From Lentilitoribacter sp. (GTDB lineage: Bacteria; Pseudomonadota; Alphaproteobacteria; Rhizobiales; Rhizobiaceae), in NCBI GenBank assembly GCA_039974935.1, contig JBDWIC010000006.1, positions 93,434-157,433 on the forward strand: a DNA stretch of 64,000 bases, read 5' to 3'. The notes under the pieces are model-generated. The model was not told the origin of the DNA. It made no database searches and saw only the letters and a list, made by a program, of their open reading frames with translations. The position numbers were made by a program, and so were the translations under genes. Shown one piece after another: positions 709 through 54,915 of this stretch (the stretch's first letter is position 1; the number at the start of each line of letters is the position of its first letter).

Positions 709-2148
709 ATGACGGAGTTGATCAAGTTTCTTGAGCCTAATGCTCAGATTATTTCAAAGCGGCCAAGTATTATCGCAGGGCTTGCACAATTGCTACCAGA
801 TGATTGTCTTATTACCGATGAGCGCGAACTTGTGCCATTTGAAACGGACGCGTTTATCGCTTATCGGCGTTTGCCGCTTGCCGTCGTTCTGCCAGAAACC
901 ACTGAGCAAGTGGCAGAGGTTGTTAAATATTGCCACGAAAATGAAGTGCCTATCGTTCCGCGCGGCGCGGGTACATCTCTCGCAGGGGGAGCGATCCCGC
1001 AGGAAGACGCAATCGTCATTGGCCTGTCAAAGATGAACCGTATCTTGGATGTGGACCTAGCAAATCGCTGTGCTGTCGTTCAGGCAGGCGTCACCAATAT
1101 CGCAATCTCGCAAGAAACAGATTCCGAAGGTTTCTTTTATGCGCCAGATCCAAGTTCGCAGCTTGCATGTACCATTGGTGGCAATATTGGAATGAACTCG
1201 GGTGGGGCGCATTGCTTAAAATATGGTGTGACAACAAATAACCTTTTGGGCCTCAAGATGGTTATGTTTGATGGTACGGTGATTGATCTTGGCGGAAAAG
1301 CGCTAGATATGCCTGGATACGATTTACTCGGTTTGTTGTGCGGATCAGAAGGTCAGATGGGCATTATCACCGAAGCAACGGTGAAATTACTTGCAAAGCC
1401 GGAAGGTGCAAAGCCTGTTTTATTTGGATTTGATAGCCCAGAAGACGCCGGACAATGCGTTAAAGATGTGATCGGTGCAGGCATCATCCCTGTTGCGATA
1501 GAATATATGGATAAGCCCGCGATCGAAATTTGTGAAGCATTCGCAAATGCTGGATATCCTATGGATGTTGAAGCTCTACTGATTGTTGAAGTTGAAGGCT
1601 CGGAAGCTGAGATGGATGCGATGCTGGCAAAAATTATTGAAGTTGCCAAAAAGCATAATGTTAAAACGGTCAAGGAAAGTCAGTCTGCGTTTGAGGCAGC
1701 ATTGATCTGGAAAGGCCGTAAATCAGCATTTGGCGCGACAGGGCGTATTGCTGATTATATGTGTATGGATGGCACTGTGCCGTTGTCCCAACTAGCGTTT
1801 GTTTTGGAAGGCACTGCGAAAATTATTGAGAAGTATGGGTTGCGGGTCGCTAACGTGTTCCATGCAGGCGATGGTAATATGCATCCGCTCATTCTGTTTA
1901 ATATGAATGATCCAGAAGAGAGCATTAAAGCGGAACAAGCGGGAATGGATATCTTGCGTTTGTGCGTTGATGCCGGTGGCTGTTTAACAGGTGAGCATGG
2001 CGTTGGTATCGAAAAACGCGATTTAATGACCCATCAATATTCCAAAGAAGACTTGGATCAACAGATGGCAGTTCGTGCAGCCTTTGATCCAAATTGGCTG
2101 TTTAATCCATCAAAAGTATTCCCATTAGAAGTTAGAGAAGACGCATGA
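709..2148 (+). CDS. glcD: Glycolate oxidase FAD-linked subunit GlcD
   Basis: FAD-binding PCMH domain (PIVPRGAGTSLAGGA) and C-terminal FAD-oxidase domain (GEHGVGIEKR). Followed by glcE and glcF. ATG at 709 follows GAGTGGAG; the longer ORF from 613 adds a non-conserved extension. Confidence 0.9.
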   Translation: MTELIKFLEPNAQIISKRPSIIAGLAQLLPDDCLITDERELVPFETDAFIAYRRLPLAVVLPETTEQVAEVVKYCHENEVPIVPRGAGTSLAGGAIPQEDAIVIGLSKMNRILDVDLANRCAVVQAGVTNIAISQETDSEGFFYAPDPSSQLACTIGGNIGMNSGGAHCLKYGVTTNNLLGLKMVMFDGTVIDLGGKALDMPGYDLLGLLCGSEGQMGIITEATVKLLAKPEGAKPVLFGFDSPEDAGQCVKDVIGAGIIPVAIEYMDKPAIEICEAFANAGYPMDVEALLIVEVEGSEAEMDAMLAKIIEVAKKHNVKTVKESQSAFEAALIWKGRKSAFGATGRIADYMCMDGTVPLSQLAFVLEGTAKIIEKYGLRVANVFHAGDGNMHPLILFNMNDPEESIKAEQAGMDILRLCVDAGGCLTGEHGVGIEKRDLMTHQYSKEDLDQQMAVRAAFDPNWLFNPSKVFPLEVREDA

Positions 2149-11961: not shown

Positions 11962-12429
11962 TTACTGAATGAAATTAATCACTTTATCGAGCGGTACATA
12001 TGGGAAAATAAAGATCCCACCGATGGTTCCGCCGCTATCTTCATCTAGATCAGACTCGCCAATACAAAAAACGGGTTGTTGTATACCCAGCTCGCATTCA
12101 AGAACTGTACTGTAAGTAAAGGGAGTTGATTCTGATGTCACAGTTTCAAATATCTGAAGAATGCTTGCTTGATCTTTTTTCTCATAGCATGCGATGACAT
12201 TGGATAGACCACAATTCATCATGTCTACGCCGTGAAGTTTTGATGAGATCGGGCCAAGTCTGATCTGGCCAGTTTCAGTATCAGCTGACCATTCCTCAAT
12301 CTGGCAAAAATGCTCCAGTTGTTTACGGCTAAGTTTTGCCTCCCCAAACGGGGATTGAGCCGCGATGCGGGCTTGTCTTGACATGACTTTAAACACTGGC
12401 ACTACTCTCGAACTGAAACATGGGAACAT
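11962..12429 (-). CDS. Hypothetical protein, possibly a single PAS-like fold
   Basis: The pattern EEWSADTETGQIRLGPISSKLHGV resembles the PAS_3-type W-x-D-x-x-G...G start. No other motifs. The start may be the internal Met at MSRQARI. Orphan gene between hisG and groEL. Confidence 0.45.
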   Translation of the reverse strand: MFPCFSSRVVPVFKVMSRQARIAAQSPFGEAKLSRKQLEHFCQIEEWSADTETGQIRLGPISSKLHGVDMMNCGLSNVIACYEKKDQASILQIFETVTSESTPFTYSTVLECELGIQQPVFCIGESDLDEDSGGTIGGIFIFPYVPLDKVINFIQ

Positions 12430-22609: not shown

Positions 22610-23203
22610 ATGAATAAAGCATTCATTGCGGTAACATTAATGAGTTTTGGTGCATTGCTATCGGGCTGTGTGTCATCGCCTACTTATGGGACAGATAAGT
22701 CATCGTCAGAGCAGTTATTTGAAGATCTAGGTAATATAGCGTCTTTGAAGACTCAAAAAGGCGCGGAAATTGATTATAAGCCTCGCCCTGATCTTGTAAC
22801 ACCACCATCGACAAGTTCGCTGCCAGAACCGCAAGTAAGTGTTGTTAAGAATGAACAGGTTTGGCCTGAATCTCCTGAAGAGACCAGAGCACGCCTCGTT
22901 GCTGAAATTACAGAAAATCAAGATAATCCTGGTTATGTTTCTCCATTGGGAATCGCCGGGCCAAATGGTAAAAGCCTAACCAGAGGCGAACAGCGTGAAG
23001 CATATCGTAAAGCGCGAGCCATTCAGCAAGGCGCTTATCAAGAAAGACGTTTTTTATCTGATCCACCAGCTGGCTATAAAATTCCAGCATCCACTGCGCC
23101 AATTGGCGAATTGGGTGAGACTGAACGTGAAAAAGAGAAAAGACGTTTAGAAGGTGCGACCAAGGCCGGCACTGGCAAAAGATGGTGGCAAGTCTGGAAG
23201 TGA
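22610..23203 (+). CDS. Lipoprotein, DUF3035-like
   Basis: Lipobox ALLSGC at residues 16-20. Low-complexity Pro/Glu-rich mature part. The family assignment is from memory of proteins with a similar layout near ileS/lspA in alphaproteobacteria. Confidence 0.65.
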   Translation: MNKAFIAVTLMSFGALLSGCVSSPTYGTDKSSSEQLFEDLGNIASLKTQKGAEIDYKPRPDLVTPPSTSSLPEPQVSVVKNEQVWPESPEETRARLVAEITENQDNPGYVSPLGIAGPNGKSLTRGEQREAYRKARAIQQGAYQERRFLSDPPAGYKIPASTAPIGELGETEREKEKRRLEGATKAGTGKRWWQVWK

Positions 23204-46059: not shown

Positions 46060-46343
46060 ACAGATTGTTTATTTGATGATAAATTTATCTTGGTTTTCTA
46101 TTTTAGCCCTGTAAAAGGGAGTTGATACATCAGCAATCCGGAATAATAGAACCAGCCTAGTAATAAAAATCATAGGTTGTTTAATGGGAATTTTTGTCTC
46201 ATTTTCCATTGTTTCATCCCAGTAATTTTACGGTTAATTAATACTTAAAACGCAATAACCATTGTTAAGGGGTGTGATTTTACACTGGTATGATGCCGTA
46301 GCCTGCTTTTGCATGTCATTATTAATGGACTTGGGTAGGGCTT

Positions 46344-48941
46344 ATGTGTATTTCCATTTTTAAATTCTTCGTTTTTTCAATTTGTGCGCTTCTTCTCGTT
46401 TCGGTGGATAGTTCGTTCGCTGTTGAGCAACCACCATCATGGGTAGCGGAACTTCAGACACAAATTGATGCGCAGCAAACCAACTCAGACCACATCTGGA
46501 CGATGACTGCCGCGGCACTTGTTTTAATGATGCAGTTTGGGTTTTTGCTTCTAGAGGCGGGAATGGTGCGGTCAAAAAACTCCATTAATGTGGCGCAAAA
46601 GAACATTTCCGATTTCTTCCTAGCAGTTGTGGTTTTCTACCTCTTTGGCTTTGGTTTGATGTTCGGTGTTAGCGAAAGCGGGTGGATCGGAAGCGTTTCT
46701 GAACTTGGTATGTTTGATAAGATGGATGAATGGCCATATACGTTCTTCGTTTTCCAGGCGGTGTTTGTAGGTACTGCAGCCACCATTGTTTCCGGCGCGG
46801 TTGCTGAACGTATGAAGTTTGGTGGGTATCTTCTCATATCAATTGTTATTGCGGCTTGTATCTATCCAGTATTTGGACATTGGGCGTGGGGCAATCTATT
46901 AAATGGTGATAATCCTGCATGGCTTGCAAATGCCGGATTTATAGATTTTGCGGGCTCTACGGTTGTTCATTCAATTGGCGCTTGGGTTGGTCTTGCCGGG
47001 ATTGTTGTCATGGGTGCGCGTCTCGGCCGATTTGGTAAAGATGGTAAGCCTATTGAAATTCAAGGCTATTCAACTGTTCTTTCCGCAGGTGGTGCAATTG
47101 TTCTGCTTGTCGGTTGGATTGGCTTTAACGGTGGTTCCACGACTGCTGGAACACCAGATTTTGCACGTGTTGTCGCAAACACGGTCATTGCAGCAGCATT
47201 TGGTGGTATTGCTTCAATGTTTATTGGCCGTTTTTACGATGGTCTTTATAATCCAACACGTTCGATAAACGGTCTGCTTGGCGGATTGGTTGGTATTACT
47301 GCTGGTTGCTTTGCTGTGGATCCGCAAGGTGCAGCAATCATCGGTCTTATTTGTGGCCTGTGCGTAGTTATAAGCGAAGAAATGATGCTACGTGTCTTCA
47401 AACTTGATGATGCGGTTGGCGCGGTTTCTGTGCACGGTATTGGCGGTGTAGTTGGCACGCTTCTTGTGGCCGCTTTTGCCACTCAAGACAATCTAATTGC
47501 AGCAACACGCTGGGATCAGTTTTTAGTGCAAGCACAAGGGGTAGCTGTCGCATTTGCATGGGCATTCCCGACTGCATTTATTGTCTTCAAAGTATTAGAT
47601 TTGCTGGTTGGTCTTCGGGTTTCAGAAGAAGAAGAGCATGAAGGTCTTAATGTGGCGGAGCACGGAGCATCATTAGGTACCGGCGAGCTACAGAAAGTTT
47701 TAGCCACATTGGTAACCGGAAGCGCCGATCTTGGAACGCGTTTGAAAGTAGAGCCGGGTGATGAAGCCGGGGAACTTGCCGAATTGTTCAATCTGCTTTT
47801 AAACAATCTTGAAGATGAGGAAAAAGCAAAGAGCCGAGATGCAGCTGAACGCGCTGCGTATGCTGAACAGGAAAAACATGCGGTTATGCAGATCTCCAAG
47901 ATCATTGATGCAGCTAGGAATGGTCAGCTTCAAGGGCGTATGGACCTTGAGGGTAAAACTGGTGTTATTAAAACGATTTCAGAAGGTTTGAATGGCTTGC
48001 TCGATGCAACATCAAATGTTGTCGGTGATATGAAAACATCTTTGTCCGAACTTGCAAATGGTCGTCTCAAAACGGTGGAATTGCAAAACGCGCAAGGTGA
48101 TTTTGCAGATATCAGACATTCATATAACGAAGCAACGTCGAAGATGACGAAGGTAATTCAAACCATAAGCTCAAGCTCAAAAGAGATCGATGGATCTGCC
48201 GGTCAATTGGATGAAACAGCTTCAAAAGTACGTAGCCAATCTGAAATTCAACGTACAAAAATAAATGAATCTACGCAGCGGCTCACAGAGATGGAGACCG
48301 CTATTTATGGGACTGCAAAAAATGCAGAAAACGCATCGTTAGCGGCTTCGGAGACAAGCAAATTATCTGAAATTTCGCACGAAAAGGCGAATATGGCCAT
48401 GCAGAGCATGGAGCAGATAAAAGAATCATCCGAAAAGGCACAAAAGTTCATTGAACTTGTAGATGACGTGGCATTTCAAACCAATATTCTTGCATTAAAC
48501 GCAGCGGTAGAGGCTGCACGTGCAGGGGAATCTGGAAAAGGTTTTGCCGTGGTTGCTCAGGAGATCAGAGATCTATCAATCAGGGTCGGAGATCTTTCGC
48601 AGGAGATTAGCGGCATCATGAAGGAGAATGATGTTTTGATTAAAGGCGGCGTAAGTGTCATGGATGAAATTAAAAATTCGCTCGGTCAGATTACTGATGT
48701 TGCACAAAACTCAGCACAAATTATTTCGCAGATTAGTAAAGCTTCAAAATCCGATACTCAGAATATTTCTGCGATAAAACACTTGGTTGATGATATTGAG
48801 GAGCTTATGCAATCAACACTTGGTGAAGCCCGCAAAACTTCTGAAGTCACAAGTTTGCTTCGTGATTTTTCAGCTGCATTACACAGCGATGTTTCACACT
48901 TTGATACGGACAATATGGCCCCGGGTTCAAAGGCGGCATAA
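46344..48941 (+). CDS. Ammonium transporter (Amt) fused to HAMP-like and methyl-accepting chemotaxis (MCP) signalling domains
   Basis: Residues ~1-26 are a signal peptide. Residues ~45-445 are an Amt core with DFAGSTVVH and [14 protein letters not shown] (twin His) and GHWAWG. HAMP-like [18 protein letters not shown] follows. The C-terminal MCP hairpin tip is [39 protein letters not shown] (nt ~48471-48570). Confidence 0.9.
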
Positions 48942-48956
48942 AACATTGGTTTACTA

Positions 48957-48990
48957 AAGAAAAACCCGCTCGGTTGAGCGGGTTTTTTTA
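48957..48990. terminator. Bidirectional rho-independent terminator between the Amt-MCP gene and dctM
   Basis: acccgctc-ggtt-gagcgggt hairpin flanked by an A-run and T7. Confidence 0.8.
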
Positions 48991-48993
48991 TGT

Positions 48994-50442
48994 TTAATTT
49001 CCATAAGCAATAGCGGGTAGCCAGGTCGATAATTCTGGGAAGTAGAACACAATTCCCAAACCAAGCAGCTGTACCAATACGAACGGTATGATACCGCGAT
49101 AGATATGCCCCAGTGTTATTTCCGGTGGACATACGCCTTTAAGATAAAACAGCGCAAAGCCAACGGGCGGGGTTAAGAACGAGGTTTGCAGAGTTACTGC
49201 CACAAGGATCGCAAACCATACAACAGATGGATTGTCTACCACACCATAGCCTTCAACCGGAAGATCAAGCGCAAGAACAACAGGCAGCATGAGCGGCATG
49301 ATGATCAATGTGATCTCAATCCAGTCTAGCAAGAAGCCCAAGCAGAAAATGATCAACAAGATAAAGCCAACAACAACATAAGGATTGTCAGAAGCCCCTG
49401 TTACCAAGTTTTCGATGATCTCATCACCACCATAGCGGCGCAGGATAAAAGCAAAGAAGCTTGCAGCAATAAAGATACCAACGATGTAACCGGATGTGTT
49501 GAGCGTTTGGCGCATCACATCTTTAAATACTTTTAGGTTAAGATTACGGCTGACAAATGCAAGGAATGTTGCGCCCATTGCACCAAGACCAGAAGCCTCT
49601 GTTGGTGTTGCAAGACCAAAGAAGATAGATCCAAGAACCAACAGGATTAATAGCAATGGCGGTACGACCGACAACGCAACATCCGCAATCACCTTCATAG
49701 ATACAGGTTCTCTGTTTTCCGGTAGTGGCATGGCTTTTGGATTAAGCACACCATAAATAATGATGAAAAGAATATATAATCCTCCAAGGATTAACCCTGG
49801 GAACAATGCACCCATAAACAAATCACCAAGGCTGATCGCCAATTGGTCAGACATGATCACCAACATAATCGATGGCGGGATCAAAATACCCAATGTGCCC
49901 GATGCAGCAATTGTTCCAGTTGCAATCTCTTTGGAGTAATTTTGGTTCATCATGGTCGGAATGCCCATAACGCCCAGTAACACCACAGAAGCACCAATAA
50001 CGCCTGTTGACGCGGCTAAGATAATGCCAATCAGCATAACAGATAATGCCAAGCCACCGCGAAGTGAGCCAAACAATGCCTGCATCGCCTTCATCATTTT
50101 CTGGGCAACGCCAGATTGATCAAGCATTAAGCCCATAAAGATAAACATTGGCAGCGCCACAAGAACAGGGTTTTTGATGACCCCGCCGAAGAACCGGCCA
50201 GAAATCGCGAACAGTTTTTTGTAGGTGATGCGTGTTTTATCAAAATCAATATATTGCGAAATTGCTTTGGCATTGGGATCAAGAACGAATTCTCCAAGTA
50301 CGCCAAATAGTAAGCCAACGCCTACAAGTGCAAATGCAACCGGTATTCCGCGAAACAGCATAAAGATGAAGGTAAGAAAAAGAAGCAGAACCAACAGTTG
50401 GTTCATATTCAACACGTTACCAATAAGGGATAAGATTTCCAT
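48994..50442 (-). CDS. dctM: TRAP transporter large permease subunit
   Basis: 482 aa polytopic DctM-type sequence. Adjacent to dctQ and dctP. Confidence 0.9.
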   Translation of the reverse strand: MEILSLIGNVLNMNQLLVLLLFLTFIFMLFRGIPVAFALVGVGLLFGVLGEFVLDPNAKAISQYIDFDKTRITYKKLFAISGRFFGGVIKNPVLVALPMFIFMGLMLDQSGVAQKMMKAMQALFGSLRGGLALSVMLIGIILAASTGVIGASVVLLGVMGIPTMMNQNYSKEIATGTIAASGTLGILIPPSIMLVIMSDQLAISLGDLFMGALFPGLILGGLYILFIIIYGVLNPKAMPLPENREPVSMKVIADVALSVVPPLLLILLVLGSIFFGLATPTEASGLGAMGATFLAFVSRNLNLKVFKDVMRQTLNTSGYIVGIFIAASFFAFILRRYGGDEIIENLVTGASDNPYVVVGFILLIIFCLGFLLDWIEITLIIMPLMLPVVLALDLPVEGYGVVDNPSVVWFAILVAVTLQTSFLTPPVGFALFYLKGVCPPEITLGHIYRGIIPFVLVQLLGLGIVFYFPELSTWLPAIAYGN

Positions 50443-52599: not shown

Positions 52600-53211
52600 T
52601 TAGAGACCGCCTTTATCTACTAAAAAGCTGACGATTTCGTCTGTGCCGTACCCGCGTTTCATATCGGTAAATATATGATCATCATTTGAGCGGACGCGTT
52701 TTGCATCGCGCTGCATGACGCTCAAATCAACCTCAACATGCGGTGCAAGGTCCTGCTTATTGATGACCAAAAGGTCTGAGCGTGTGATGGCAGGGCCACC
52801 TTTTCTGGGAATTTCTTCCCCCTGACATACAGAGATTACATAAATGGTCAGATCTGCAAGGTCTGGAGAAAATGTGGCAGCCAGGTTATCACCGCCGGAT
52901 TCGATAAAAATGACATCAAGATCAGGATGTGTCTCACATAATTGATCAATCGCGCGTAAGTTTAACGATGCATCTTCCCGAATTGCCGTGTGAGGACAGC
53001 CACCTGTTTCAACACCCACTACGCGATCTGAAGGCAAAGCTTGCATCCGCATAAGCGCTTCTGCATCTTCACGGGTATAAATATCATTGGTTAAAACGGC
53101 GAGGGAATACGTCTCCCGCATGGCTTTGCATAACTTCTCAGTTAGGGTCGTTTTGCCAGATCCAACAGGACCACCAATTCCAACGCGCAACGGACCATTA
53201 CCTTTAGCCAT
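52600..53211 (-). CDS. ureG: Urease accessory GTPase UreG
   Basis: [17 protein letters not shown]-loop, ESGGDNL, NKQDL. ATG at 53211 follows GGAG; the ORF opens at 53226. Confidence 0.95.
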
Positions 53212-53256
53212 GTTTTTGAACTCCAATTTTTACGATCGTGATCAAGATTAATCTAA

Positions 53257-53919
53257 TTAAGATTGAAATATCCGCGATTCCATAGTTTCGTGTCGCATAG
53301 ATGAAATATCGGCGGTAATAGTAAAGCTTCCCAGGTCATCCAACGTTGTTTGCGAAGCGCGTTCTGTCAATTCAATCAACAAAGGTTCAAACCGCGCCAA
53401 AATTTTCAATGCATCATTTTGCCCAATGATAGATAGGCGAATTGCAGCTTGTAACTGATTGCTGACAAAAGCCTGTAGGTAAGTCAAAAGCGCGGGCGAT
53501 AATTCAATGCCAGCATCTGCGCATCTTGCCCCAACCGCAATGGGAAGTGCGCATTGGCTGGCGAGTGTTGAGCGATCCACATCCCACGCATTTGCAGCTT
53601 TTAAAAAAGCTGCACCCTGAGCTATCGTTTCGTGATGTCGTTCTTTAGTACCAGCCATAGCTTCTGCCAACGCGGATACCTCACCAAGATGAGAACCATC
53701 TTTGGCCAATTGCCAAGCATTTGAAAAAAAGACCGCGTCATTCCAAGTGCTACCATAATTTAAATAATCACTTAGCCAGTCAAAAAGTTGCTCAGCGTTT
53801 GTAACCATTCCGCTTTTGCTTGCCTGTTCCAGCCCGGCGCTATAGGCAAAGCTGCCAATTGGGAATACAGGGGATAGCCATGCCATCAATCTTAAAAGGG
53901 AAGTTCTATCATCAGTCAT
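53257..53919 (-). CDS. ureF: Urease accessory protein UreF
   Basis: [24 protein letters not shown] is a typical UreF N-terminus. The ATG overlaps the ureE stop (ATGACTGA). The ORF extension to 54018 was rejected. Confidence 0.9.
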
Positions 53920-54379
53920 GATGGTGATGATCACCTTTATGATGGCCGTGCGAGTGTCCAGAAGAATATGCGCCACCTTCAGGGTCAAACGGCGCTGTGA
54001 TTTCTTCAACTTTCGCACCTAAACCTAAAAGCATATCTTTGATGACATGATCTGCGCGGATAAACAAATGGTCCTTGAATATCTGCGTAGGCAGGTGGCG
54101 ATTGCCCAATTGCCAGGTGAGTGAAAGCAAATGATGGTCGTCATTGCCCGAAACTTTGAACAATAGTTCAGGTTCCGCACAGACTTCTATTAAACGCCCA
54201 TCATCAAGCATCAAACCTTCACCATGGCGAAGAAGCTTTGCCTCGGGTAAATCGAGCAAAAACTCTATGCCATTATCTGATTTCATCTTCATGCGACGTC
54301 GATGACGTGCTGTTTCATCCAAAGTGATGATGTCATCAGACTTATTGAAATCAAATGTAGTTTGGTTTGCTGTTATCAT
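53912..54379 (-). CDS. ureE: Urease accessory metallochaperone UreE
   Basis: UreE N- and C-domains. His-rich tail [17 protein letters not shown]. Confidence 0.9.
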
Positions 54380-54594
54380 GGCATTGCCTTAATCATTTCA
54401 CGAATTTTTACAGCTTTTTCAAAATGATCGAGTTCATGTGTTTTAATCCACCAAGTTGCAGCTTCCATAAGTAATTCTGGATCTGTGTTTTTATTGGCGA
54501 AAAAGGCGTAGAATGACAAACCGACATTTTCGCCCTTTTGTTCGATCTTGGCGTTACAAACATCGATAATCTTTGCTTTTAATTCTGCACGCAT
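54376..54594 (-). CDS. Hypothetical 72-aa protein embedded in the urease operon
   Basis: ATGA overlap with the ureE start implies translational coupling. Predicted helical. No recognisable motif. Confidence 0.55.
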
Positions 54595-54607
54595 GATTGA
54601 ACGTCTA

Positions 54608-54904
54608 CTATTTCACGACAACATCTTGAGGCGTAATAATCTCAATTTTCCGATCGAGGAAATACTCAGATGCAGCTTCGCGCCATGCTAAGAAATGTGG
54701 CTCAGTAAAGTGGTTGTCGACTGCTTCTTGCGTTTCCCAACGCTCAACAAAAGTCAGCGTGTTTTCCTCGGTCATGTTTTCAAACAAATCATAAGAAATG
54801 TTGCCAGCCTCTTTGCGTGTGCCTTCGATGCACGGCGCCACAAGTTTTCTTAGTGTTTCTTGGCTGCCAGGTTTGATTTTCAAAGTTGCGATCAAATAGA
54901 TCAT
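54608..54904 (-). CDS. ABM-domain protein (antibiotic biosynthesis monooxygenase / YgiN-like)
   Basis: 98 aa. The pattern I..L.IKPG...........TR.E.GN.SYDLF.........F.ERWE.QEA...H is typical of the ABM ferredoxin-like fold. Confidence 0.7.
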   Translation of the reverse strand: MIYLIATLKIKPGSQETLRKLVAPCIEGTRKEAGNISYDLFENMTEENTLTFVERWETQEAVDNHFTEPHFLAWREAASEYFLDRKIEIITPQDVVVK

Positions 54905-54915
54905 AGTAGTATCCC

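Follow-up and report, generated by a model that had tools for sequence, protein, structure and literature searches.

The 64,000-nt stretch of DNA analyzed here (the window; contig JBDWIC010000006.1), from Lentilitoribacter sp., a marine member of the Rhizobiaceae, carries at positions 46344..48941 (+) a gene that joins a channel domain of the ammonium transporter (Amt) family to a methyl-accepting chemotaxis protein (MCP) signaling module. From its sequence and predicted structure, we consider it fairly probable that this Amt-MCP protein is an ammonium receptor (AmR class) that signals via its MCP module to a chemosensory pathway. Residue comparison and structural modeling supported placing the Amt module with Ks-Amt5 and Sd-Amt1 in the AmR class, and not with the AmtB-like proteins, and the MCP module looks fit for complexes with CheA and CheW, not for classical methylation. 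We infer that the protein binds ammonium, that it carries out no net transport, that it is coupled to CheA and that its output is behavioral. An initial annotation, made from the sequence alone, had proposed a chemoreceptor that senses ammonium by a channel fold and not by a periplasmic ligand-binding domain; the match to AmR residues, the fold and the cassette of transmembrane helix 11 (TM11) and HAMP lend support to that proposal.

Results

Domain layout

The gene is a single 865-aa open reading frame (ORF) with an ATG start, as first described, and its product is NCBI MEP3199876.1, named "MAG: ammonium transporter [Lentilitoribacter sp.]" (MAG, metagenome-assembled genome). The proposed layout of Amt, HAMP and MCP was recovered with Pfam: Ammonium_transp (PF00909) at residues 52-442 (E = 9e-105, 351 bits vs. 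a cutoff of 23.2, model positions 2-396 of 399), HAMP at residues 449-491 (20.9 bits, slightly under the gathering score), HAMP_2 at residues 540-599 (26.5 bits, cutoff 24.3) and MCPsignal (PF00015) at residues 668-822 (102 bits, cutoff 34.6). With NCBIfam, TIGR00836 ("amt") scored 362 bits (cutoff 343), and the top named match of the C-terminal half was Vibrio Aer2, a poly-HAMP aerotaxis transducer. The motifs quoted in the initial annotation were all found in their places, namely GHWAWG at residues 178-183, DFAGSTVVH at 201-209 (D201 and H209), a 14-residue motif at 355-368 (H364) and the hairpin-tip motif at 711-737. Residues 1-26 are probably a Sec signal peptide; residues 1-20 had low confidence in the AlphaFold2 (AF2) model, and the signal-peptide region evolved faster than the rest of the protein (ratio of nonsynonymous to synonymous divergence, dN/dS, 0.16-0.24).

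The Amt module and the ammonium receptors

The Amt part was modeled by AF2 with high confidence (predicted local distance difference test, pLDDT, >90) as 11 long helices. The closest solved structures by sequence were Ks-Amt5 (6eu6, 304 bits) and Sd-Amt1 (8qj3 and 8qpf, 297 bits), with AmtB at 162 bits. When Foldseek was run with the AF2 model, template modeling (TM) scores to solved Amts were 0.88-0.95 overall; four receptor entries ranked first (TM 0.93-0.95, 42% identity; Ks-Amt5 0.95, Sd-Amt1 0.94), and AmtB followed at 31% identity.

Sd-Amt1 and Ks-Amt5 bind NH4+ at the lateral sites N1 and N2, produce charge displacement and not transport, and have their fused outputs activated (PMC11152129, PMC5764959). 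Both discriminate against methylammonium, and ON and OFF states of Sd-Amt1 have been solved (PMC11152129). The signature of the N1/N2 site is Q-x6-E-x15-N-x2-D-F/T-x54-60-T-x2-S/T (Pflueger et al. 2024, PMC11152129), and a regular-expression search matched it exactly at residues 64-150 of the query. Ligands and neighbors Q22, E29, N45, D48, T104 and S107 of Sd-Amt1 correspond to Q64, E71, N87, D90, T147 and S150; the opener of the side path, F25, corresponds to F67; the switch residues K44 and Y119 correspond to K86 and Y162, the latter just downstream of the signature span; and N269, which narrows the cytoplasmic exit, corresponds to N309. Alignment to AmtB and Sd-Amt1 also showed that the residues of recruitment (W182 and S265), the Phe gate (F141 and F261), the twin-His (H209 and H364) and D201 are kept. 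All canonical pore residues were therefore intact, and the complete-looking Amt with its conserved Asp and twin-His pore, as described initially, was confirmed. The query equals Sd-Amt1 at 18 of 18 pore, ligand, switch and exit positions, whereas Escherichia coli AmtB departs from it throughout the N1/N2 positions, and its exit residue is Ser.

The same residues were invariant or nearly so in an alignment of 121 fusion proteins reaching down to ~38% identity. The N1/N2 ligands, Y162 and the seven pore residues were invariant, K86 was present in at least 90% of the proteins and N309 in 118 of the 121. The precedent named in the initial annotation, the Amt-kinase of Kuenenia, holds as Ks-Amt5; the second characterized example, Sd-Amt1 (2024, PMC11152129), had been missed.

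HAMP relay and MCP hairpin

Subgroup alignment and the AF2 model indicated three helix-loop-helix HAMP units (residues ~446-490, ~514-560 and ~561-607). The two HAMP-like stretches first noticed were thus HAMP, and their number had to be corrected to three. HAMP1 sits directly on TM11, in the position that it has in Sd-Amt1 (AF2 helix 445-457, a loop, and a helix from 474), and a short helical spacer lies between HAMP1 and HAMP2. The repeat pattern of HAMP2 and HAMP3 was seen in the subgroup alignment. AF2 placed helices at 517-524, at 541-571 and from 586 onward. The second is modeled as one uninterrupted helix that spans amphipathic sequence 2 (AS2) of HAMP2 and AS1 of HAMP3, an arrangement typical of poly-HAMP arrays; pLDDT was <50 for residues 506-558.

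The hairpin was modeled as a helix at 586-726, a turn at G728 and a helix at 728-851. It aligned to E. coli Tsr 264-512 without a gap and at equal length, and Foldseek returned 3zx6, a HAMP-Tsr fusion, at TM 0.85. In the tip window 710-745, 30 of 36 residues were identical to Tsr 372-407, in agreement with the highly conserved tip reported at first; the tip Glu E729 is Tsr E391, and N719, A720, E723 and F734 were invariant in the 121 homologs. We take this hairpin to be a "36H" receptor in the Alexander-Zhulin classification, and residues 711-734 match the region with which Tsr binds CheA and CheW and makes trimer contacts.

Methylation sites were searched with the regular expression [EQ][EQ]xx[AGST][AST], which in a control recovered exactly Tsr 297, 304, 311 and 493. 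It found no canonical motif in the MCP module of the query, where noncanonical sites are possible. Of the 121 family members, 70 likewise had no match, and none of the architecture classes showed a conserved position. The four Tsr sites fall on I635, E642, E649 and K831, none of which has the EExxA[S/T] context, and the query has no NWETF-like tail (the CheR-tethering pentapeptide). The full MCP domain of the initial annotation thus has the signaling domain and the tip and lacks canonical methylation motifs. Their absence makes the name "methyl-accepting" doubtful here and points to a receptor that probably has no methylation-dependent adaptation of its own, like Aer. E. coli Aer is a precedent for a methylation-independent transducer.

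Reality and conservation of the fusion

The identical 865-aa protein is present on three independent MAG contigs. PF00909 and PF00015 were both found, as precomputed domains, in all of the best 120 homologs (90% to ~38% identity) from a collection of 5.8 billion proteins. A survey of one genome per GTDB species gave 202 stretches with relatives, of which 80 loci were kept; the MCP module was matched by tblastn in 44 of these 80, and further loci, L017 and L059 among them, were shown by Pfam to hold fusions with a more divergent MCP part. Carriers included Cohaesibacter, Roseibium, Rhodobium, Pelagibius, Kiloniellaceae, Rhodospira, Terasakiella, Azospirillum and Woodsholea, and scattered carriers were found in Rubrivivax, Pseudobdellovibrionaceae, Bradymonadia and Spirochaetia. 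The architecture, whose spread the initial annotation had left to be surveyed, is therefore kept across many families and several phyla.

One ortholog, on the Lentilitoribacter sp. chromosome OY829371.1 (L005, 9971-12603), a MAG assembly, is split into ORFs of 326 aa and 555 aa, as would be expected if an assembly error or frameshift had joined two genes in our sequence. The frameshift falls within the Amt domain near residue 320, away from the domain junction, and is probably a sequencing or assembly error, a pseudogene being possible. Because the fusion recurs, on three contigs as the exact protein, in more than 120 homologs and in 91 of the 150 best junction matches described below, an artifact is refuted and we regard it as hardly credible; the fusion stands.

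Compared with three orthologs of ~90% identity, synonymous divergence (dS) was saturated (at least 1.9 or undefined), and nonsynonymous divergence (dN) was 0.03-0.06 alike in the Amt, HAMP and MCP parts and 0.02-0.05 in the hairpin tip; drift was limited to the final 12 residues. Every module is under strong purifying selection. NCBI, JGI and UniRef label the Amt-MCP proteins plainly as "ammonium transporter", which would suit an ordinary transporter with a C-terminal tail that is regulatory or vestigial and lacks a signaling partner. Such a tail is very improbable given that the HAMP and MCP parts are as constrained as the Amt module, that the tip residues are invariant and that the fusion was retained in so many lineages.

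Architectures of the family

When the 121 proteins were classified by how far the hairpin tip lies from the end of their Amt module, 84 members fell at 208-216 residues (one HAMP and longer hairpin arms, with ~161 residues from tip to C-terminus) and 25, including the query, at 282-304 residues (three HAMPs and Tsr-length arms). Nine members at 377-390 residues had further HAMP or PAS-like modules, two at ~600 residues had further HAMP or PAS modules, and a single member at 238 residues sits between the first two classes. For the number of HAMP units, we distinguish only one from three. An always odd number of HAMPs (1, 3 or 5, from linker lengths) was considered and dropped, since the longer classes could not be counted by Pfam and some hold PAS. 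In two Amt-MCP proteins (P0055 and P0072; 1183 and 1158 aa), PAS domains separate HAMP1 from a longer HAMP array, suggesting that a second input, a cytoplasmic one, is integrated.

Amts of the same clade are also fused to GGDEF (Planctomycetota and Fusibacter) and to hybrid histidine kinase. The TM11-HAMP1 junction (residues 395-500), searched against 1.84 billion representative proteins, had 1217 matches at E ≤ 1e-3, of which 139 reached E ≤ 1e-10. Among the best 150, 91 were MCP, ~20 histidine-kinase-like and ~7 GGDEF-like (the last two by a crude motif test), and the rest were fragments or unassigned. The junction of the query is homologous to that of the GGDEF and histidine kinase fusions; because it is common to the three outputs, the sensor-HAMP cassette is a reusable unit. 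MCP is its commonest partner around the query, in a census that our choice of query biases. In a neighbor-joining tree of the Amt modules, which carries no support values, the MCP classes, histidine kinases, GGDEF proteins and stand-alone Amts were intermixed; this intermixing suggests repeated shuffling. A single origin of the fusion was considered, and the same tree allowed no firm conclusion on it.

Stand-alone relatives and P-II

Stand-alone Amts of the same clade bear the same 18 residues, some of them a few kb from a P-II gene. At six loci of Bryobacteraceae and related MAGs (L068, L070, L071, L072, L080 and L081), a stand-alone Amt lies a few kb from a glnB/K-like gene. These Amts have the full N1/N2, switch and exit set, and the AmR signature is thus not specific to fused sensors. 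The P-II-linked relatives are probably transporters, and "cluster 2" also includes plant AMT1, which does transport (PMC11152129). Since P-II-linked stand-alone Amts have it, the N1/N2 signature is a mark of the clade and not proof of a pure receptor, and we dropped it as proof of "receptor, not transporter".

A P-II probe gave no tblastn match anywhere in the window or at any Amt-MCP locus; matches were found solely beside stand-alone Amts. This agrees with the initial annotation, which had seen no adjacent glnK. The same annotation had coupled "ammonium binding or conduction" to signaling. The match to the ammonium-receptor class is compatible with both binding and conduction, as the P-II-linked stand-alone Amts share the signature. 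In a true transceptor, the Amt would conduct ammonium and the MCP would report flux or occupancy, so that uptake and signaling are coupled. The intact canonical pore residues, the identical N1/N2, switch and exit residues of the same-clade Amts near P-II genes, and transport by cluster-2 proteins such as plant AMT1 would all be accommodated by this alternative. We nevertheless find it unlikely: the 18 positions checked, the exit-narrowing N309 among them, all agree between the query and Sd-Amt1, Sd-Amt1 and Ks-Amt5 give charge displacement and not translocation, and no Amt-MCP gene adjoins a P-II gene.

Genomic neighborhood and che genes

The gene stands by itself, with the end of an unrelated ROK regulator 284 bp upstream; downstream lie a convergent TRAP set (DctM/Q/P) and then ureG/F/E/C. 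No Pfam family occurred more than three times among 118 flanking genes at 38 Amt-MCP loci, and urease, TRAP, P-II and Che were not among the recurring families of that set; orthologs of 90% identity already have other neighbors. The nitrogen-themed neighborhood of the initial annotation was therefore not upheld, and an association of urease or TRAP with the gene was rejected.

A conserved placement of che genes beside the fusion was rejected: tblastn probes of E. coli CheW and CheY found none in the window and a CheW-like gene within 10 kb at just 1 of 81 related loci, a MAG of Spirochaetia UBA6919 (L061, 14801-15256). MCP receptor genes are commonly orphan. At three loci of Pelagibius/Kiloniellaceae (L016 8789-10570, L029 8822-10603 and L030 8996-10813), a conventional HAMP-MCP gene lies directly upstream of the fusion gene on the same strand.

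Other genes of the window were noted in passing. The urease cluster (52600-57096) contains ureG, ureF, ureE and ureC, with an LprI-family gene at 56707-57096 past ureC; ureA/ureB and ureD were not located in the cluster among ORFs of at least 120 aa. Two ORFs of 155 aa (11962-12429, -) and 197 aa (22610-23203, +) had no Pfam match at E ≤ 1e-5, and their surroundings are housekeeping genes (hisS, hisZ-like, hisG, groEL, ribF and ileS).

Upstream region and terminator

Conserved blocks at 46229-46335 consist of AGTTAATTAA, AATAAC and ~75 nt with a small hairpin, TGGTATGAT and GCATGTCA. They were ~100% identical at five orthologous loci, while dS in the coding sequence was saturated. The small hairpin showed one compensatory change, and TGGTATGAT resembles an extended -10 element. 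The cores GG[TC]ATGAT[GA]C and GCATG[TC][AC]AT were kept in orthologs of 74-80% identity; the -10-like core was lost at 60%. The block is present in a single copy in the window and elsewhere solely upstream of orthologs, and it had no Rfam match at E ≤ 0.1. An RNA structure was rejected, the consensus fold being weak (-13 kcal/mol, one covarying pair). This weak fold, together with the retention of only the -10-like core in divergent orthologs, favors a promoter or operator as the probable role of the block. Control by sigma-54/NtrC was also rejected because the spacing of the upstream GG/GC elements is unsuitable, and a sigma-70 scan of the + strand upstream of the gene gave nothing convincing.

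Known RNA elements in or around the gene were rejected as well, the only Rfam matches being sub-threshold ones on the terminator hairpin. These were "Leu_leader" and "rnk_pseudo" at 48882-49062 on both strands, coinciding with the terminator between the convergent Amt-MCP and dctM genes, and they are most likely just the terminator hairpin. The features are listed in Table 1.

Table 1 Features of the Amt-MCP gene and its flanks, in positions of the window
Feature	Residues	Position	Strand	Basis
Conserved noncoding block before start codon		46264..46335	+	Near-100% identity in five orthologous loci
Whole gene, Amt-HAMP-HAMP-HAMP-MCP	1-865	46344..48941	+	ORF, Pfam, NCBIfam, NCBI MEP3199876.1
Probable Sec signal peptide (...SSFA/VEQ cut)	1-26	46344..46421	+	Hydrophobic N-terminus in sequence
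Amt-like sensor, 11 transmembrane helices	49-442	46488..47669	+	Pfam, TIGRFAM, AF2, Foldseek
N1/N2 signature Q64-x6-E71-x15-N87-x2-D90-F91-x55-T147-x2-S150, spanning K86	64-150	46533..46793	+	Regular expression, alignments
HAMP1	445-491	47676..47816	+	Pfam HAMP, AF2, junction homology
Di-HAMP unit (HAMP2 ~514-560, HAMP3 ~561-607)	~514-607	47883..48164	+	Pfam HAMP_2, subgroup alignment, AF2
MCP signaling hairpin	608-853	48165..48902	+	Tsr alignment, AF2, Foldseek
Hairpin tip	711-734	48474..48545	+	Tsr alignment, conservation, dN
Strong intrinsic terminator, 14-bp stem then T run		48958..48989	+	17 nt past stop, between convergent genes

Discussion

Proposed mechanism and the points against it

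If the protein is an ammonium receptor that signals to a chemosensory pathway, as we favor, its 11 helices would be inserted in the membrane, probably as a trimer, as for all Amts. Periplasmic NH4+ would be picked up at the Trp/Ser vestibule, would pass the Phe gate and the twin-His, and would fill the lateral site N2 and then N1 (E71, N87, D90, T147 and S150, with Q64 nearby). Occupancy would turn E71 away from K86 and move Y162, as in Sd-Amt1, and the cytoplasmic end of TM11 would shift. From HAMP1 on TM11 the signal would run through the di-HAMP unit to the Tsr-length four-helix-bundle hairpin, the tip of which would alter the CheA/CheW complex and hence motility, or some other chemosensory output, in either an attractant or a repellent sense.

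Several points weigh against this reading, besides the occurrence of the N1/N2 signature in P-II-linked stand-alone Amts that are likely transporters. The function of Amt-MCP is predicted here from sequence and structural modeling. With no che gene in the window and a CheW-like gene at only 1 of 81 loci, the link to CheA is one that we infer; flagellar genes were likewise absent from the 64 kb. The type species of Lentilitoribacter was described as non-flagellated, and a module with no canonical methylation sites could serve outside classical adapting chemotaxis. Finally, the symmetry of an Amt trimer does not match that of an MCP dimer, and the assembly of the four-helix bundle into trimers of dimers is puzzling. 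For Sd-Amt1, two of the three HAMPs were proposed to pair (PMC11152129). As a speculation, two Amt trimers (six chains) could give one trimer of dimers, or dimers could bridge neighboring trimers.

Some of these points would be explained if ammonium were sensed and the MCP fed a non-flagellar pathway (biofilm, c-di-GMP, pili or development). Such an output would agree with the lack of canonical methylation sites and of a CheR-tethering pentapeptide, with the absence of che and flagellar genes from the window, with a genus that may lack flagella, and with the sister architectures, which drive c-di-GMP synthesis and two-component signaling, that is, lifestyle decisions. It would leave unexplained a hairpin of Tsr length with a near-identical tip, which are typical of receptors in flagellar systems, and the many carrier genera that are motile; Azospirillum, Roseibium, Rhodospira and Terasakiella are flagellated and chemotactic. 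On this balance a non-flagellar output seems quite unlikely. A wider proposal extends our preferred reading: in many Alphaproteobacteria, most of them marine, and in a few other lineages, the Amt-MCPs might be the chemoreceptors dedicated to ammonium, with an obligately trimeric sensor that drives obligately dimeric bundles in a new array geometry and with no methylation adaptation. We offer it tentatively and as somewhat unlikely in this full form.

Standing in the literature and significance

Bacteria are reported to swim toward ammonium. To our knowledge, none of the bacterial chemoreceptors identified to date is dedicated to ammonium, and the literature searched yielded none. No description of an Amt domain linked to an MCP was found there either, in line with the statement in the initial annotation that no functional work on such a fusion was known. 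The two AmR papers make no mention of chemotaxis (PMC11152129, PMC5764959), an Amt-MCP fusion is absent from a review of prokaryotic Amts published in 2023, and a paper of January 2026 treats direct physical evidence that bacteria sense external ammonia by an Amt as limited to anammox bacteria. The AmR authors foresaw more Amt-based signaling systems, and because of this prediction the present find is not wholly unexpected.

What is new would be an AmR-class sensor with an undescribed output or, equally, a chemoreceptor with an undescribed type of sensor. The characterized Amt-like ammonium receptors are two, one with a kinase and one with a cyclase output, and the Amt-MCP makes bacterial ammonium chemosensing directly testable. 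If our reading is true, it opens ammonium taxis in marine nutrient patches to molecular study, an 11-helix channel fold joins the sensor repertoire of chemoreceptors, and a structural question is posed, namely how a trimeric sensor drives a dimeric four-helix bundle in arrays of trimers of dimers.

Comparison with known systems

Among the characterized proteins, Sd-Amt1 of Shewanella denitrificans (Amt-HAMP-GGDEF; 8qj3/8qj4; PMC11152129) belongs to the same Amt clade and, like the query, has HAMP immediately behind TM11; in both, a trimeric sensor is predicted to be coupled to an output that is active in dimeric form. Its output is a diguanylate cyclase, whereas that of the query is an MCP hairpin with two extra HAMP units, and the presumed partners are c-di-GMP effectors in Sd-Amt1 and CheA/CheW in the query. 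Ks-Amt5 of "Candidatus Kuenenia stuttgartiensis" (6eu6; Pflueger et al. 2018, PMC5764959), the top solved relative, has the N1/N2 site and is a receptor with no net transport; unlike the query, its output is a histidine kinase, and it has Arg for K86, Asn for Y162 and Thr for F91, S150 and N309.

E. coli AmtB shares with the query the 11-helix fold, the Trp/Ser site, the Phe gate, the twin-His, the Asp and, probably, a cleavable signal peptide. It differs in all N1/N2 residues and in having Ser in place of the exit Asn, and it pairs with GlnK, whereas the query has no glnK partner and carries a cytoplasmic signaling extension of 425 residues. Fungal Mep2 and insect Amt transceptors sense ammonium with an Amt-family protein, as proposed for the query, but they work through separate downstream partners, have no fused bacterial signaling module and reach 112 bits to the query.

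On the output side, Tsr and other Tsr-length receptors resemble the query in having HAMP before the bundle, in the ungapped hairpin and in the 30/36 tip identity. The sensor of Tsr is a two-helix dimer that forms a periplasmic four-helix bundle, whereas that of the query is an 11-helix trimeric channel fold; Tsr also has four methylation sites and the NWETF tail, whereas the query has neither the EExxA[ST] motif nor the tail. Aer2 of Pseudomonas and Vibrio has a poly-HAMP relay such as the query may also have, is the top NCBIfam match of the query's C-terminal half and is matched as Protein Data Bank entry 3vol. By analogy with E. coli Aer, methylation-independent signaling may likewise be suggested for the query. 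The sensors of Aer and Aer2 are PAS domains in the cytoplasm that carry FAD or haem, whereas that of the query would be a membrane channel fold.

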